Shown: positions 32,420 through 64,000 of the stretch, one piece after another
Layout: each line of letters begins with the position of its first letter
Numbering within the stretch: the stretch's first letter is position 1
NCBI GenBank assembly: GCA_937858275.1
Contig: CALLZK010000024.1
Coordinates: 1,567 to 65,566, forward strand
Source of the DNA: an uncultured bacterium
Lineage (GTDB): Bacteria; Patescibacteriota; Minisyncoccia; Phycocordibacterales; JAACPR01
Direction of reading: 5' to 3'
Length of the DNA stretch: 64,000 nt
Made by a program: the position numbers and the translations under genes
The notes under the pieces: generated by a model
What the model was told of the DNA's origin: nothing
The model's input: only the letters and a program-made list of their open reading frames with translations
The model's database searches: none

Positions 32420-32489
32420 TTTTGTATTTTTCGTATAGTTTGATTAATTTAACAGATATTAAACAAAAAGTAAAGGGTTATGTATTTTA

Positions 32490-32603
32490 TTAACCTTGTT
32501 TTTGTTTGTGTCTTGGATTTTTGCAAGTTATGTAAAGATTGCCTCTTCTTTTTACGATTTTGCAATTTTTACATCTTGCTTTTATTGCTGATTTTATTTT
32601 CAT
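32490..32603 (-). CDS. rpmJ: 50S ribosomal protein L36
   Basis: Not in the ORF track because it is under 60 aa. Translates as [37 protein letters not shown] (37 aa, C-C-C-H zinc ribbon), in the canonical infA-rpmJ-rpsM position. Confidence 0.85.
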
Positions 32604-32612
32604 AAATTTTTG

Positions 32613-32828
32613 TTATAATCTTCTAAAAATTCGAGCTTTTCCGCCATAAGGATCTAATTTCATTAAAACCTTGTCGCCTATTAAAACTCTTATTCGCATC
32701 ATTTTCATTTTTCCCGCAAGATAAGCCAAGACTTCTGTTCCGTCTTTTAGGACAACCTTAAACATGGCTTCTGGCAAAGCCTCTATTACAGTTCCCTCAG
32801 CTTGATCTTCGTTGTTTTTATCTACCAT
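32613..32828 (-). CDS. infA: translation initiation factor IF-1
   Basis: '[43 protein letters not shown]'. Confidence 0.9.
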
Positions 32829-32870
32829 TAAAATTCAGTTAAATATAATAACAAAATTATGATTAGTTTG

Positions 32871-34280
32871 TCAATTTTTATTATTAGTTATTTGTAAATT
32901 AATATTTTTTATATCGACCGGAAAAGTTTTTTTCCAAAAAGGAGAAATTGTAGCAGATCCTTTTGTTATTGCTGGAAAATTTGATAGGACCAAACCAAGA
33001 TCATTTTTTGTTTTTCCTGCCATTGTTTTTTTAAAATTTTCTATATCAATTTGCCAGACGAAAGTCATATTTTGATTTACATCTATTGTTTCGCTACTAA
33101 GCAAATTGGTTGAGTCTTCTAATTTTTTTATTGTAAAAATTACTGAATCTATATCTTGTATCAAAACATCTTGACCTACACGATAATCAATAATTGTATT
33201 TTTTGCAATTTCATTTGAAAGTGCTATTTTATTAAATACTTTTATACTTAATTTTCCATCAACACTTATATCTACACTTCTACCGTCTGCAGAATTTGTC
33301 TGTCTTACATTGTTAAAAACAAAAGAATTATCGTCAAATATTGCTATAAATTCTTTTGATATTTGATTAGTTATCTCCAAAATAAGTGCCGATTTTAGTT
33401 CTGAAATTAATTGTTGCGATGATCTGCTTAGAACTTCTGAATCTACAATTTTCCTAATTCCGTTGTACCCTTCGGTCATTGGGGTTTTTGATTTTGCATA
33501 GAAAGAATTGAATTGTTCTTGTCCTTTGAAACCGGGGATTGTAAAGTCTACCAAGTTTATGTTGTACTTTTCTCCGTTTTCGTCCGCAAAAACAACCGCA
33601 TCTATGCTACCTGGTATTTTGTTTCCATCAACTATTCTATAACCAGGAACAGTAATTGATTCTTGTATTCTATAAATTAAACCGTTTGGAGATTCAAATC
33701 TTGTATTGCGAATAAGTGTTTGTGGTCTGTCCGAATATTCATTAAAAATAGTGATGGTTCCACTTGCTTTTGATTGAACAAATTCCTCTTTTTCTGCTGG
33801 TATATTTTTTGTTAATTCTTTTGAGATTTCTATTAATCGATAACCTAAAACATTTTGATTTGAATTTTTTGTGATATCAGCGATTGGAATACTTTTGTTT
33901 ATTGAAGCCTCAACTGTTTTTTGTTCTATACTGATTACTGCATTTTCTAAAAAAGAAATTATAAAAAAAACTATGGCCAAAATAGCTACAATAGATGAGG
34001 TTATTAAAAAAGTTTTTATTTTTTTGCCTTTCTTGTAATTTTTGCCATTTAACTCATTTAGATATTTTTCATCTAATGGAATGTCTTTTTTTACAAAACC
34101 AGATGGTGGTGTAATTGGGGTTTTTGGTTTTAATTCCTGAACAATATGATCATTTTTTAATGATTTTGTCGGTTTTTTTTCTAAAATAACCGGTCTTCTT
34201 CTTGGCGGAACCGGAATATCCCTAATTGATCTTTTTTGTTTTGGTGGTATTACATCTTGTAAAAAATTATTATCATTCAT
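32871..34280 (-). CDS. bitopic membrane protein: Pro/Lys-rich cytoplasmic N-terminus, one TM, about 370-aa extracytoplasmic domain; function unknown
   Basis: 'IPVPPRRRPVILEKKP...', TM 'FLITSSIVAILAIVFFIISFL'. No recognised motif. Confidence 0.5.
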   Translation of the reverse strand: MNDNNFLQDVIPPKQKRSIRDIPVPPRRRPVILEKKPTKSLKNDHIVQELKPKTPITPPSGFVKKDIPLDEKYLNELNGKNYKKGKKIKTFLITSSIVAILAIVFFIISFLENAVISIEQKTVEASINKSIPIADITKNSNQNVLGYRLIEISKELTKNIPAEKEEFVQSKASGTITIFNEYSDRPQTLIRNTRFESPNGLIYRIQESITVPGYRIVDGNKIPGSIDAVVFADENGEKYNINLVDFTIPGFKGQEQFNSFYAKSKTPMTEGYNGIRKIVDSEVLSRSSQQLISELKSALILEITNQISKEFIAIFDDNSFVFNNVRQTNSADGRSVDISVDGKLSIKVFNKIALSNEIAKNTIIDYRVGQDVLIQDIDSVIFTIKKLEDSTNLLSSETIDVNQNMTFVWQIDIENFKKTMAGKTKNDLGLVLSNFPAITKGSATISPFWKKTFPVDIKNINLQITNNKN

Positions 34281-60025: not shown

Positions 60026-62632
60026 TTATTTTTTTCTTTTTAATACTCTTTTCAAATATTTTGAAGTAAATCCTTTTTCAGAATCAGCGACTTGCTCTGG
60101 AGTTCCTTTTGTTATAATTTTTCCACCATTAACTCCTCCACCAGGACCAATATCAATAATATAATCAGAGGATTTTATCAAATCCATATTGTGTTCTATT
60201 ACAACGACCGTGTTTCCTTTGTCGACTAATTTTTGTAAAATTTCAATTAATTTTTTTACATCTTCATAATGAAGACCAATGGTTGGTTCATCCAAAATAT
60301 AAATTGTTTTTTGTAAATGTGCCCTATATAATTCGGAAGAAATTTTTACCCTTTGAGCCTCACCACCAGATAAAGTTGTGGCGGATTGTCCTAATTCCAA
60401 ATATCCAAGACCGACATCATCTAAAGTTTTTAATCTATCGTAAATTGCTGGAATATCTTCGAAGAATTTTAGAGCTTCTTCAACTGTCATGTTCAAAACC
60501 TCATAAATATTTTTGTGTTTGTATTTGACTTCAAGAGTTTCTTTCATAAATCTCTTACCATTACAAATATCACAAGGAACATAAACAGTTGGTAAAAAAT
60601 GCATTTCAACTGCAATATATCCATTACCCTGACATGCCTCGCATCTTCCGCCTTTAACATTAAAAGAAAATCTATTGGCCTTCCAACCCCTTGCTCTTGC
60701 TTCTGAAGTTTCAGAAAACAAATCTCTAATAAAAGAAAAGGCACCAGTATAAGTTGCCGGGTTTGATCTTGGGGTTCGTCCAATTGGTGATTGATCTATC
60801 AAAATTGCTCTGCTGATATATTCGCTCCCACTAAAACTTTGGCAATTTTCCAAAACATCGGTTCTGTATCTACGATCAAATTTGTTTCTTAAATTTTTAT
60901 ATAATATTTCATAAACCAAAGATGATTTTCCGGAACCAGAAACTCCCGTTACTGATACAAATTTTCCTAACGGAAAATCAACATCCATATTTTTAATATT
61001 AAAAATATTTCCGCCTTTAATTTGAATTTTTCCACGATTTTCATTTCTACGACTGTCTGGAATTTCTATATTTTTTTCACCTCTCAAATAATCAAGAGTT
61101 AAAGATTTTGAATAATTTGTTTTTGCGGTTAATAATTTTTCTAAATCATCTGCGACAACAACATTTCCACCATGTACCCCAGCTCCAGGTCCAATATCAA
61201 CCAAATAATCAGCAGAAAAAATAGTATCTTCATCATGTTCAACAACAATAATAGTATTTCCAGCATCTCTTAACTCAAGAAGTGTTTTTATGAGACGGTC
61301 ATTGTCGTGTGAATGCAAACCAATTGTTGGCTCGTCCAAAACATAAGTTGCACCAACAAGACCAGATCCAAGTTGTGAAGCCAAACGAATTCTTTGTGAT
61401 TCCCCACCAGACAAAGTGTGTGCTCTTCTGTCTAATGTCAAATATTCTATTCCAACATTATTCATAAAATTTAATCTTTCAGTAATCTCTTTTAATACAA
61501 CCTTGGCAATTTCTTGTTCTTTTTTATTTAATTTTAATTTTTCAAAAAAAACTATGCACTCCGAAACTGACATTTTTGTTAAATCCACAATATTGGTTTT
61601 TGTATTTGGTAGAAAAATATGCAAAGCTTCTGGTCTTAGTCTGGCACCGTTACAAGACTCACACAAATCATTACCAAAAAAATGTTTTGTACCAAGACCA
61701 TTACAAGTTTGACAAGCTCCATATGGAGAATTAAAAGAAAATAACCTGGGTTCTATTTCTGGAAAAGAAAATCCATCATGCGGACACATAAATTTTGCAG
61801 AAATTAATTTTTCTTCATTTGGGGTAACGATTTTTAGTAATCCCTCAGATTCCTGCAATGCCCTTTCTATTGATTCAGAAAGTCTTTCTTTGTAGCCTTC
61901 TTTTTTATTTTTAATATCTGACAAATACAACTCGTCAATCAAAATATCAATATCGTGTTTTTTGTTTTTTGATAAAACAATACTTTCTCTTAATGAATAT
62001 ATTTTTCCATCTATTTTGGCTTTTTGATATCCTTTTCCCAACATATCATAAAGCAATTGATAATACTCCCCTTTTCGCCCAACTATAACAGGAGCAAAAA
62101 CCATTAATTTTTCGGAGTCAACTTTGACATTCAAAACCTTTTTTGAATTTTTTGATTCTATATTTTCTACTAAATTTATGATTGTATTTAAAATTTCTTC
62201 TTGTGTTAATTTTACAATTTCTTGTCCGCAAACAAGACAATGTGGTCTACCAATTCTGGCATATAAAATTCTCAAATAATCATAAATTTCAGTAATTGTA
62301 GCAACGGTTGACCTTGGATTATTTGAACGAGATTTTTGATCTATTGAAATTGCCGGAGAAAGACCAGTTATTTCGTCGACATCTGGTTTTTGCATTTTAT
62401 TTAAAAATTGCCTAGCATAAGCAGACAAAGATTCAACATATCTTCTTTGTCCTTCTGCAAAAATTGTATCAAAAGCCAAAGAAGACTTTCCGGAACCAGA
62501 AAGTCCGGTGAAAACAATCATTTTGTGCCTAGGCATTTCAACTGTAATATTTTTTAGATTGTGAGTTCTGGCACCTTTAACAATTATTTTTTCTTGGTCT
62601 ATATTATTTTTTTTAAAATTTTGTTTTGACAT
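60026..62632 (-). CDS. uvrA: excinuclease ABC subunit A (868 aa)
   Basis: Two ABC modules '[14 protein letters not shown]' and '[11 protein letters not shown]', and zinc fingers '[13 protein letters not shown]' and '[16 protein letters not shown]'. Confidence 0.95.
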
Positions 62633-62699
62633 TTTTTATAAAAACATACAAACCCTGATTTTGCTGACAGGGTTATATTGGAAATTCATTATCGCATTT

Positions 62700-62745
62700 T
62701 TTTTTAAAAAAACAAGCCCGCACATTCTGTCACAATATGCGGGCT
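62700..62745 (-). terminator. hairpin terminator (GCCCGCA..15 nt..TGCGGGC + T-run on the minus strand) after the GC-rich gene
   Basis: 7-bp GC-rich stem flanked by A and T runs. A second hairpin ACCCTG..CAGGGT (62652-62673) lies in the uvrA leader. Confidence 0.6.
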
Positions 62746-62759
62746 TTAGGGGACGAAGC

Positions 62760-63497
62760 TTAGGCAGTGCAACTTGCCGATGACACCCTGACCCTCATCC
62801 AGTCAACATGGGTATCAGCAGGCTTGGGCACATTACCGTAAGACTTCAAACGGTATTGAAACTCGGGCAAGGTCAAACGATTTAATATCGAGATCTGTCG
62901 AAGCAGTTCGTTGTATGTTTCATCTGCCGACAGGTTGCCGTTGTTTTTTACCAAAAACCTTGGCACATTCCTTGATTTGACCTCGCGATCAATCAGGTGG
63001 GCAACTTCATGGTAACGATGAATTCGTTTCCAAACCGCCTCTTCGTCCATGTCGTCGATACGACACTGTTCTTCCGCTCGCTTTTTAGCACGAGCAAAAC
63101 AAACATGTGGCGGAACATCGATTTCAATTGAAATGATGTCATTGCTTGAACTATATTTCAACAGATCAAGCATCAAAACGGCTTGTTCTTGCTCTCGCAA
63201 GATGCCGTTATGAATAACCACCGACAGTCCCCGTCCTTTCAGAACAGATTCATCAAGACCATCAAAAATTCTTTGGCCCTGATTATCTTTTCCGGACAAT
63301 GCACTTCCTCGCAAGATCACATGAAGGACCTTTTGAGTTCCACTTTGAGGAACTCGATAAAGTGCATCCTTCCAAATATTGTAAGCGATTTTGCACGGAA
63401 CATTCGCTCCGCGAGACATCATTTCACGAACCGAAGAAGCCAATTGCGGATCTTCGATTTGCTTTAAAAGTTCAGACATAACAATCATTCTTTTCAC
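62760..63497 (-). CDS. P-loop kinase-like protein (possible chloramphenicol-phosphotransferase-like or NMP-kinase fold) in a about 50% GC island
   Basis: GTG start at 63497 is preceded by 'ttGGAGGatagaa' (ATG alternative at 63488). Walker-A-like 'VILRGSALSGKDNQG'. 'IEIDVPPHVCFARAKKRAEE' resembles a kinase LID segment. Codon usage is GC-rich. Confidence 0.55.
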   Translation of the reverse strand: MKRMIVMSELLKQIEDPQLASSVREMMSRGANVPCKIAYNIWKDALYRVPQSGTQKVLHVILRGSALSGKDNQGQRIFDGLDESVLKGRGLSVVIHNGILREQEQAVLMLDLLKYSSSNDIISIEIDVPPHVCFARAKKRAEEQCRIDDMDEEAVWKRIHRYHEVAHLIDREVKSRNVPRFLVKNNGNLSADETYNELLRQISILNRLTLPEFQYRLKSYGNVPKPADTHVDWMRVRVSSASCTA

Positions 63498-63556
63498 TTC
63501 TATCCTCCAAGAGCATTTTAGCTCTATAATGTTACTGTACTAATCAACGAAAGCAC

Positions 63557-64000
63557 CTACTTTCGTTTCAATCCGTCAGAAACTTTACCATTTTTATTTA
63601 AAATATCAAGTATTTGTCTTATTTCGTCTCTTAAAATAGCAGCAGTTTCAAAATCAAGACTTTTGGCAGCAGCATTCATTTTTTTCTCTTTTTGTTTTAA
63701 TAATTTTTCTGGATTATTTTTTAACATTTTTTCATCAAGTTTTAGTAAAATATTAACAGCCTTTTTGTGTTCGGTATTAATTTGATCTGTTATATCTTTA
63801 ATAGATTTTATAATAGTTTTTGGGGTAATATTATTTTTCTTATTATATTGTAATTGAATTTCTCGACGACGATTTGTTTCTTTTATTGCTCTATCAAGAG
63901 AACCGGTTATTCTATCTGCATACAAAATAACCCTACCATCAACATTTCTGGCTGCTCGACCAATAGTTTGAATTAAAGAAGTTTCTGATCTTAGAAAACC
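63557..64000 (-). CDS. uvrB: excinuclease ABC subunit B, C-terminal part (gene continues beyond the window end)
   Basis: 'GFLRSETSLIQTIGRAARNVDGRVILYAD' (helicase motif VI region) and a C-terminal UVR domain '..AAKSLDFETAAILRDEI..'. Confidence 0.85.
   Translation of the reverse strand, partial: GFLRSETSLIQTIGRAARNVDGRVILYADRITGSLDRAIKETNRRREIQLQYNKKNNITPKTIIKSIKDITDQINTEHKKAVNILLKLDEKMLKNNPEKLLKQKEKKMNAAAKSLDFETAAILRDEIRQILDILNKNGKVSDGLKRK

Follow-up and report, generated by a model that had tools for sequence, protein, structure and literature searches.

Adenylate kinase (ADK) is one of the standard model enzymes in work on dynamics and on engineered permutation. In normal adenylate kinases the segment that binds the nucleoside monophosphate (NMP) comes after the P-loop, and the strands of the sheet lie in the order 2-3-1-4-5. 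Rearranged motif order is familiar from the circularly permuted P-loop GTPases YjeQ/RsgA, YlqF and YqeH, in which fold and activity are kept. Here we describe a kinase-like gene from an uncultured member of the Patescibacteriota (assembly GCA_937858275.1, contig CALLZK010000024.1, positions 1,567 to 65,566; this whole stretch of 64,000 nucleotides is referred to as the window), which lies between the excision-repair genes uvrB and uvrA. Unlike those GTPases, which are true circular permutations, its product shows a local swap of two neighbouring segments in an NMP kinase, for which we know of no natural precedent in that family; literature searches returned nothing relevant on natural permuted adenylate kinases, nor on an adenylate kinase with uvrA/uvrB in Patescibacteria. 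A preliminary description had taken the gene for a recent import, conceivably an antibiotic-inactivating kinase. We conclude instead that it is a resident, lineage-specific gene: an ADK paralog whose segments are swapped in order and whose place between uvrB and uvrA is fixed.

A divergent adenylate kinase-family protein

The gene and the segments of its product are as follows (aa, amino acids; GC, guanine-cytosine content; GC3, GC at third codon positions).

62760-63497, minus strand: kinase-like open reading frame (ORF) of 245 aa with a GTG start, encoding a divergent member of the adenylate kinase family; GC 44.0%, GC3 42.3%
63357-63494, minus strand: aa 2-47, β2 and NMP-binding helices ('MSELLK...MMSRGANVPCKIAYNIWKDAL'), from MAFFT and the AlphaFold2 (AF2) model
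63225-63356, minus strand: aa 48-91, relocated β1–P-loop–α1 unit ('LHVILRGSALSGKDNQGQRIFDGLD'), from MAFFT, a P-loop hidden Markov model (HMM) and AF2
63282-63308, minus strand: Walker A, G64-N72, inside the relocated unit
62874-63224, minus strand: aa 92-208, kinase core with β3 'VVIHNGILR', α5, β4, a short LID region, β5 and the C-terminal helix
62763-62873, minus strand: aa 209-245, C-terminal tail with the family-specific motif PE[FY]Q[YH]R..YG..P....DW

The ORF list confirmed the 245-aa frame at 62760-63497 between uvrB and uvrA-uvrC, as first described; NCBI annotates the same ORF as 239 aa, with its start at Met7. Sequence profiles matched the product at low scores, with the Pfam model ADK (PF00406) reaching 18.5 bits over the C-terminal half only and the NCBIfam adenylate-kinase models giving weak matches to the same half (up to 29.9 bits). 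Its relatives P0004, L006, L037 and L055 scored 32.3, 27.9, 38.1 and 52.8 bits against Pfam ADK, all passing the gathering threshold of 26.8 bits, and a phmmer search of PDB sequences with the window protein recovered the ADK 8pvw (E=1e-6). An AF2 model built on a 13-sequence alignment (predicted local distance difference test, pLDDT, 77.5; predicted template modelling score, pTM, 0.76) adopts the NMP-kinase fold. Its best Foldseek matches in the PDB were short-LID AK1 and UMP/CMP kinases (E=3e-7, target-normalised TM-score 0.63-0.68), and its best match in a viral structure library was again an adenylate/UMP-CMP kinase.

The residues of the core support the same assignment. With the short-LID adenylate kinases (AK1 type; short bacterial enzymes, e.g. 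M. tuberculosis Adk) and the UMP/CMP kinases the protein shares the five-stranded α/β fold, the NMP-binding helices and the short LID, as well as the GxxxxGK motif, the G-x-x-R-x-x-x-Q of β3/α5, the R...R before the LID and the R-x-D-D after it. Alignment with ordinary ADKs showed no variation at G98, R101, R136, R140, R146, D148, D149 and R158, and little or none at Q105; the catalytic arginines of the core and LID, the Asp-Asp pair and the α5 glutamine are thus all present. We take R101, Q105, R136, R140, R146, D148, D149 and R158 to correspond to R88, Q92, R119, R123, R156, D158, D159 and R167 of Escherichia coli ADK, and Q105 presumably occupies the position of the glutamine that contacts the adenine of AMP in adenylate kinase structures. 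The kinase LID-like stretch 'DVPPHVCFARAKKR' pointed out in the preliminary description is present, and its 'DVPP..R..KKR' portion forms the β4/α6 stretch leading into the LID. Because sequence profiles, predicted fold matches and conserved catalytic arginines and glutamine agree, we place the protein in the adenylate kinase/NMP-kinase family, as a short-LID type.

It is not CPT-like by the same measures. Two folds had been offered at the outset, CPT-like or NMP-kinase, and only the second held, through the AF2 model and the match to 8pvw. Searches with the CPT family PF07931 (no match at E<=10) and with Zeta_toxin found nothing, AAA_33 reached 18.2 bits against a cut-off of 27, and no CPT occurred among the top 50 PDB fold matches of the AF2 model. 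All three families belong, like the window protein, to the P-loop kinase superfamily, but they lack the ADK NMP-binding subdomain and the R-x-D-D end of the LID. We rejected anti-phage defence and phage origin, since neither PADLOC nor PHROGs gave a match for the window protein or its closest relatives.

The P-loop unit lies behind the NMP-binding segment

Unlike the short-LID ADKs, the window protein carries its NMP-binding subdomain before β1–P-loop–α1. It also differs from them in its P-loop, GSALSGKD, in a β3 that ends in HNG and not DG, in a 37-aa C-terminal tail and in its sub-threshold Pfam score. The order was read against two relatives, P0003 and P0004, which an exhaustive search of 1.84 billion representatives recovered at E ~1e-11 and which have the canonical succession of β1–P-loop–α1, NMP-binding segment and β3. 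MAFFT aligned aa 4-47 of the window protein to the segment that binds the NMP in ordinary ADKs and in P0003 and P0004, and left aa 48-91 as an insertion; in accordance with this, the N-terminal 'RMIVMSELLK...MMSRGANVPCKIAYNIWKDAL' matches 'RIVMSDELK...MMNASQNVPCEKTYRVWASAY' in the interior of P0003. The 44-aa insertion, which contains 'LHVILRGSALSGKDNQGQRIF', was found in just two proteins, the window protein and P0002.

The displaced unit retains a recognisable P-loop. An HMM built from the N-terminal P-loop segments of the canonical relatives matched aa 58-78 at 8.4 bits (14.7 bits for P0002), a score reached by 0 of 2000 shuffled sequences, whose maximum was 2.2 bits; the Walker-A-like 'GSALSGKDN' of the preliminary description is therefore upheld. 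No β1–GxxGxGK P-loop–α1 precedes the NMP-binding domain at the N-terminus, and the P-loop homolog stands at a non-canonical position. With aa 55-90 removed, the protein scored 25.5 instead of 18.5 bits against Pfam ADK, and profile coverage widened from 78-140 to 39-140. The secondary structure of the AF2 model (strand 2-6; helices 7-12, 17-28 and 35-47, at pLDDT 84-92; strand 56-63; loop 64-71, at pLDDT <50; helix 72-79; strand 91-97) fits the order β2–NMP-binding helices–β1–P-loop–α1–β3. Un-permuting the sequence in silico was discarded as support: it gained no more in Pfam score than the deletion did and a scrambled control performed similarly (25.0 vs 25.5 bits), which indicates that Pfam is blind to the divergent P-loop and leaves the family-specific HMM as the evidence.

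Since the new connections would join neighbouring strands in a 2-3-1-4-5 sheet, the swap is topologically plausible, and the strands could still form a five-stranded sheet. We propose that in this genome and one relative the P-loop unit moved behind the NMP-binding subdomain. If the order is confirmed, this would be, to our knowledge, the first natural adenylate-kinase fold that tolerates relocation of its P-loop, and given the standing of ADK as a model enzyme such a case would be useful to work on enzyme dynamics and permutation.

A small family fixed behind uvrB

The genes on either side of the kinase-like ORF are both on its strand.

63557-64000, minus strand: 3' end of uvrB, from the ORF list; the gene continues beyond the edge of the window
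60026-62632, minus strand: uvrA, 868 aa, 67-88% identical to UvrA of 80 Paceibacterota/Parcubacteria genomes

The matching contig L001 carries a full UvrB of 696 aa with its Pfam domains, and uvrA is followed by uvrC and ddl. Wherever the context of a family member could be read, in 13 of 13 loci, the gene is the immediate downstream neighbour of uvrB and precedes uvrA on every contig long enough to include it (the window, L003, L004, L005, L006, L008, seen from the uvrA side only, L010, L037, L055, L063, L086/87, L088 and L089). Among the ~15 billion proteins searched we found no relative outside the uvrB-uvrA slot of Paceibacterota, and by these searches the family is very small and specific to that group. 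Its genomic address sets it apart from the usual adk, which belongs to a secY-adk-map neighbourhood. tblastn with the E. coli and B. subtilis Adk found no canonical adk in the 64-kb window, where the ordinary adk position is empty.

Kinase-like genes of canonical order occupy the slot in related Paceibacterota (P0003, P0004, L006, L008, L010, L037, L055/L063, P0070-74 and P0077). They share with the window gene the position, the β3 motif 'V[VI]IH[DN]G', the core residues and, in most cases, raised GC and a Shine-Dalgarno site; they differ from it in their N-terminal P-loop and are only 16-35% identical to its product. The tail motif (PEYQYR..DW) is common to the window protein, P0002 and P0004 and weaker in L006, and in the model the tail is predicted to be disordered (pLDDT 31-34). 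The family evolves far faster than its surroundings: between loci the flanking UvrA proteins are 72-96% identical and the kinase-like proteins 16-67%, with 88% vs 27% for the window and L006 and 96% vs 53% for L055 and L063.

The slot itself was surveyed in 80 GTDB genomes retrieved via UvrA (67-88% identity). In ~55 of them uvrB lies upstream of uvrA on the same strand, with a gap that varies between 72 bp and 3.8 kb. A response regulator with two receiver domains is found there most often (22 genomes), with a histidine kinase in 9 genomes; an ADK-like gene is present in 6. Several unrelated ORFs also occur there, some of them GC-rich (L021 3292-3876, 58% vs 41%).

An assembly artefact, with foreign DNA joined between uvrB and uvrA in a chimeric contig, would account for the abrupt shifts in GC at the borders of the cassette. 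A chimera is unlikely because two assemblies, GCA_035324455.1 (a Candidatus Paceibacterota metagenome-assembled genome) and GCA_035327505.1, carry the same region at 100% and 99.99% identity, and because a homolog of 67% identity (P0002, locus L003) occurs in the same uvrB-uvrA context in an unrelated SRA run. Homologous gene order recurs in independent runs and genomes (L003-L006, L008, L010, L037, L055, L063, L086-L089), and we regard the artefact as extremely improbable.

Expression signals around the gene

Five elements flank the kinase-like ORF.

63498-63556, minus strand: uvrB-to-kinase spacer, 59 nt, read from the sequence
63505-63509, minus strand: Shine-Dalgarno sequence GGAGG, 6 nt 5' of the GTG start
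62704-62746, minus strand: intrinsic terminator of the kinase-like gene, 13-bp stem, 7-nt loop and T-run
62688-62696, minus strand: putative extended -10 box TGCGATAAT of uvrA's own promoter, read from the sequence
62646-62679, minus strand: uvrA-leader hairpin AACCCTG-N10-CAGGGTT (62651-62674), local copy of an inverted repeat

The strong GGAGG site and its rarity in native genes, both noted in the preliminary description, were borne out: 56 of the 58 other ORFs checked have no GGAG, GAGG or AGGA within 20 nt before the start. The genome is nearly devoid of Shine-Dalgarno sites, as judged from the 20 nt that precede each of 59 ORFs, and TATAAT-like boxes lie no more than 20 nt from the start codons of many genes in the window. 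Such spacing suggests that the mRNAs are leaderless or have very short leaders.

Upstream, the spacer holds a 6-bp hairpin over the uvrB stop codon (CGAAAG-TAGGTG-CTTTCG) that is without a T-run and is also found in L003, and a terminator scan of the window called nothing in this spacer. As the spacer shrinks to 14-35 nt in L005, L055 and L063 and no terminator intervenes, the kinase-like gene is probably a distal member of the uvrB transcript. Downstream, a Rho-independent terminator, also predicted from the start, follows directly 3' of the stop codon: its GC-rich stem-loop (62746 to 62714) has 13 pairs, 6 of them GC, and is followed by the T-run GTTTTTTT. The 133-nt terminator region folds at -34.7 kcal/mol (z=-3.8). 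The stem AAGCCCGCA/TGCGGGCTT (62714-62746) is identical in L003 (870-902), where the loop differs, while the loop ATTGTGACAGAAT is identical in L006 (4355-4390), where the stem is different but compensating; the terminator thus looks mosaic.

Beyond it lies the candidate promoter of uvrA. A TGnnATAAT box also stands 3' of the terminator in L003 and L006; a consensus promoter scan left the box at 62688-62696 uncalled. The leader hairpin is one copy of a repeat with inverted arms, (A)CCC(C)UA..N..(G)GGG(C), which ~40 Paceibacterota genomes carry ahead of uvrA at a distance of 10-120 nt from its start, in most cases 70 nt or less; a -10-like box often stands upstream, and in several cases the loop is ACCAU. 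Model R1 of the repeat has one match in the window, at 62646-62679. RNAalifold derived no consensus for the hairpin from a MAFFT alignment, no Rfam family matches it, and in a covariance-model alignment of the repeat 57% of cells were paired, with a partner slid by one column doing better. In the arrangement that we propose, the kinase-like gene would be read from the uvrB transcript and stop at its own terminator, and uvrA would restart from its own promoter and leader hairpin.

Origin of the unusual base composition

The preliminary description had put the GC content of the cassette at about 50%, which proved too high: the ORF stands at 44.0% and the stretch 62640-63560 at 42.7%, against 29.7% for the whole window. 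Among 738-bp windows (standard deviation 3.3%) the maximum, 44.7% (start 62701), overlies the kinase-like ORF. Its deviation in codon usage was confirmed, with a GC3 of 0.423 vs 0.197±0.049 in 58 other ORFs (z=4.6) and a synonymous-codon log-likelihood at z=-4.8. The gene is the strongest compositional outlier in the window and not the sole one, an ORF at 1936-2373 being equally GC-rich. In composition and codon usage, therefore, it departs from its host genome as an acquired islet would. The other marks of an islet did not appear: homologs occupy the site in 12 further loci, and we found neither a donor lineage nor mobility genes, with no integrase or transposase adjoining the gene.

These features recur across the family. 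Where flanks were measured, the kinase-like gene has the higher GC3 in 8 of 9 alleles (e.g. 0.42/0.17, 0.44/0.24 and 0.52/0.27), and a Shine-Dalgarno-like purine run precedes 6 of 9 alleles (window, L003, L004, L006, L010 and L037). Conservation of the gene in the same slot at the same GC had been set as a check on its origin; the position is shared, the GC is not, ranging from 34% to 58% among slot homologs. Because the features recur in most alleles of a slot-fixed family, and because synonymous sites are saturated against the nearest homolog, we consider high GC, unusual codon usage and the Shine-Dalgarno site to be family traits and not signs that the gene was imported recently from a distant organism of high GC.

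This bears directly on the origin proposed in the preliminary description, in which a CPT-like antibiotic kinase was recently acquired from some distant organism of high GC, for instance an actinomycete. A compositional outlier with its own Shine-Dalgarno site and terminator is what such an import would look like. Yet PF07931 and zeta-toxin models do not match, the NMP-binding domain, LID arginines and fold are those of an adenylate kinase, and the ~15 billion proteins searched hold no homolog outside Paceibacterota uvrB-uvrA slots, which leaves an actinomycete-like donor unsupported. Nor would an un-ameliorated recent import account for homologs at the same position in 12 other loci and for saturated synonymous divergence from the closest of them. 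We found nothing to support antibiotic inactivation, and consider the whole scenario very improbable.

Exchange within the Paceibacterota is a more substantial alternative. Here the slot would be a recombination hotspot in which kinase-like cassettes, each bringing a Shine-Dalgarno site and a terminator, are swapped by homologous recombination through the conserved flanks, and the window allele would have arrived fairly recently from a GC-richer relative. Such exchange would explain a GC3 of 0.42 vs 0.17, a Shine-Dalgarno site in a genome poor in them, and a range of kinase-like GC3 (0.26-0.59) narrower than that of the hosts (0.16-0.51), with the largest excess in the lowest-GC hosts. The relationships of the alleles point the same way: judged by UvrA (88%) and the UvrB tail (85%) the closest species is L006, whose allele resembles that of the window least (27%, 42 bits, canonical order), while the more distant L004 and L005 have more similar ones (71-74 bits), and DNA identity to L006 drops from ~80% to ~40% at the gene borders. 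The mosaic terminator, with its stem as in L003 and its loop as in L006, the wide variation of the slot in length (72 bp to 3.8 kb) and content, and the existence of another GC-rich cassette with a Shine-Dalgarno site at 1936-2425 fit as well. However, the databases searched contain no GC-rich donor allele, the cassette has no flanking mobility genes, and the GC excess in 8 of 9 alleles would require the donor to surpass the recipient in GC nearly every time. Flank dS (1.4-2.1) is near saturation and kinase-like dN (0.4-0.9) does not rise above the neutral expectation, so fast vertical divergence suffices; for the same reason, flank dS exceeding kinase-like dN, we dropped the identity break with L006 as proof of replacement. 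We regard recent exchange as rather unlikely. We give somewhat more weight to vertical descent with very fast evolution, under an unexplained force that keeps GC high. Allele exchange, biased conversion and selection are all candidate causes of a composition that, with high GC, foreign codons and a Shine-Dalgarno site in a genome poor in them, mimics recent transfer and yet recurs in slot-fixed alleles.

Active site, selection and likely activity

Comparison of the window allele with P0002 (L003) gave dN 0.275 and a saturated pS of 0.80, and the longest identical run between the two proteins, aa 58-71, falls in the P-loop block. These values indicate purifying selection on the kinase-like gene. 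Within the active site, a P-loop 'GKD' (aa 70-72 region) is found together with a β3 that has lost its terminal acidic residue (aa 96-98) in three separate lineages: the window protein with P0002 (HNG), L037 (FIG) and P0074 (FQG). Family members with GKG, GKR or GKS retain D or E at that end of β3. This repeated pairing suggests that a Mg-binding carboxylate has been relocated, as would fit a working nucleotide site. The likeliest reaction would be Mg-ATP + AMP <-> 2 ADP, or the phosphorylation of a closely related NMP, and both catalytic activity and AMP specificity are inferred here.

Alternatively, the protein may have kept the ADK fold and lost phosphoryl transfer, serving as a nucleotide-binding or structural accessory (for example of UvrB/UvrA, through the C-terminal motif) or drifting towards loss. 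The Walker A sequence GSALSGKD, which lacks the Pro-Gly of GxPGxGKGT, the replacement of DG by HNG in β3 and of the NMP-site arginine by lysine (SELLK), the very fast divergence, the sub-threshold Pfam ADK score and the conservation of the C-terminal motif are all in keeping with such a protein. Against it, the window protein retains its P-loop lysine, its aspartate pair, Q105 and every arginine of the LID and core, dN is far under dS with the longest identical run in the P-loop block, and the coupled GKD change and loss of the β3 acid in three lineages looks compensatory. We therefore regard a non-catalytic role as unlikely, if by no means negligible.

We favour, with slightly better than even confidence, a functional, divergent ADK-family enzyme of a Paceibacterota-specific paralog family located after uvrB, with swapped segment order and an odd composition that is a family trait. 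Several observations weigh against this interpretation. The window protein falls under the Pfam ADK gathering threshold (18.5 vs 26.8 bits), and its atypical Walker A, GSALSGKD-N, lies in a loop modelled at pLDDT <50. The swapped order is carried by just two sequences, the window protein and P0002, and the place of the relocated P-loop in space is deduced and not seen in coordinates. Evolution of the family is very fast for a housekeeping enzyme (27% identity where UvrA has 88%), and, although synonymous divergence is saturated, a resident gene holds a GC3 of 0.42 where its genome has 0.18, with no cause that we can name. Finally, unrelated genes (a response regulator with or without a histidine kinase, and others) fill the slot in many related genomes, so position alone is no proof of a link to repair.

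With these points in mind, the gene probably encodes an accessory adenylate kinase with permuted order, active and co-transcribed with uvrB, whose product would be expressed alongside nucleotide-excision repair. The strict linkage of an ADK paralog to uvrB/uvrA in one clade of the candidate phyla radiation (CPR) may indicate that excision repair has an accessory so far unrecognised, or at the least that these genes form a stable unit of co-expression. A fuller version, in which an active NMP kinase with a non-circular permutation, from a fast-evolving and hitherto undescribed family tied to uvrB-uvrA, balances ATP and ADP as a partner of repair in energy-poor symbionts, is tentative and on the whole doubtful.

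Other features of the window

The ribosomal-protein cluster infA-rpmJ-rpsM-rpsK-rpsD-rpoA-rplQ, at 32420-34280 on the minus strand, is without secY-adk-map and is preceded by a 469-aa protein with a hydrophobic segment.

The second GC-rich cassette, at 1936-2425 on the plus strand, has a GC of 45% and a GC3 of 49%. It contains a near-consensus promoter, TTGACA-17-TAGTAT (~1977-2005), and the Shine-Dalgarno sequence AGGAG. From an ATG at 2059 it encodes a 104-aa protein that found no match in Pfam or PHROGs and begins with a hydrophobic, signal-like segment (MNKLLSGLLIVLVVFFITTVADA...). A hairpin terminator, AAACCCGAG..CTCGGGTTT, closes the cassette.

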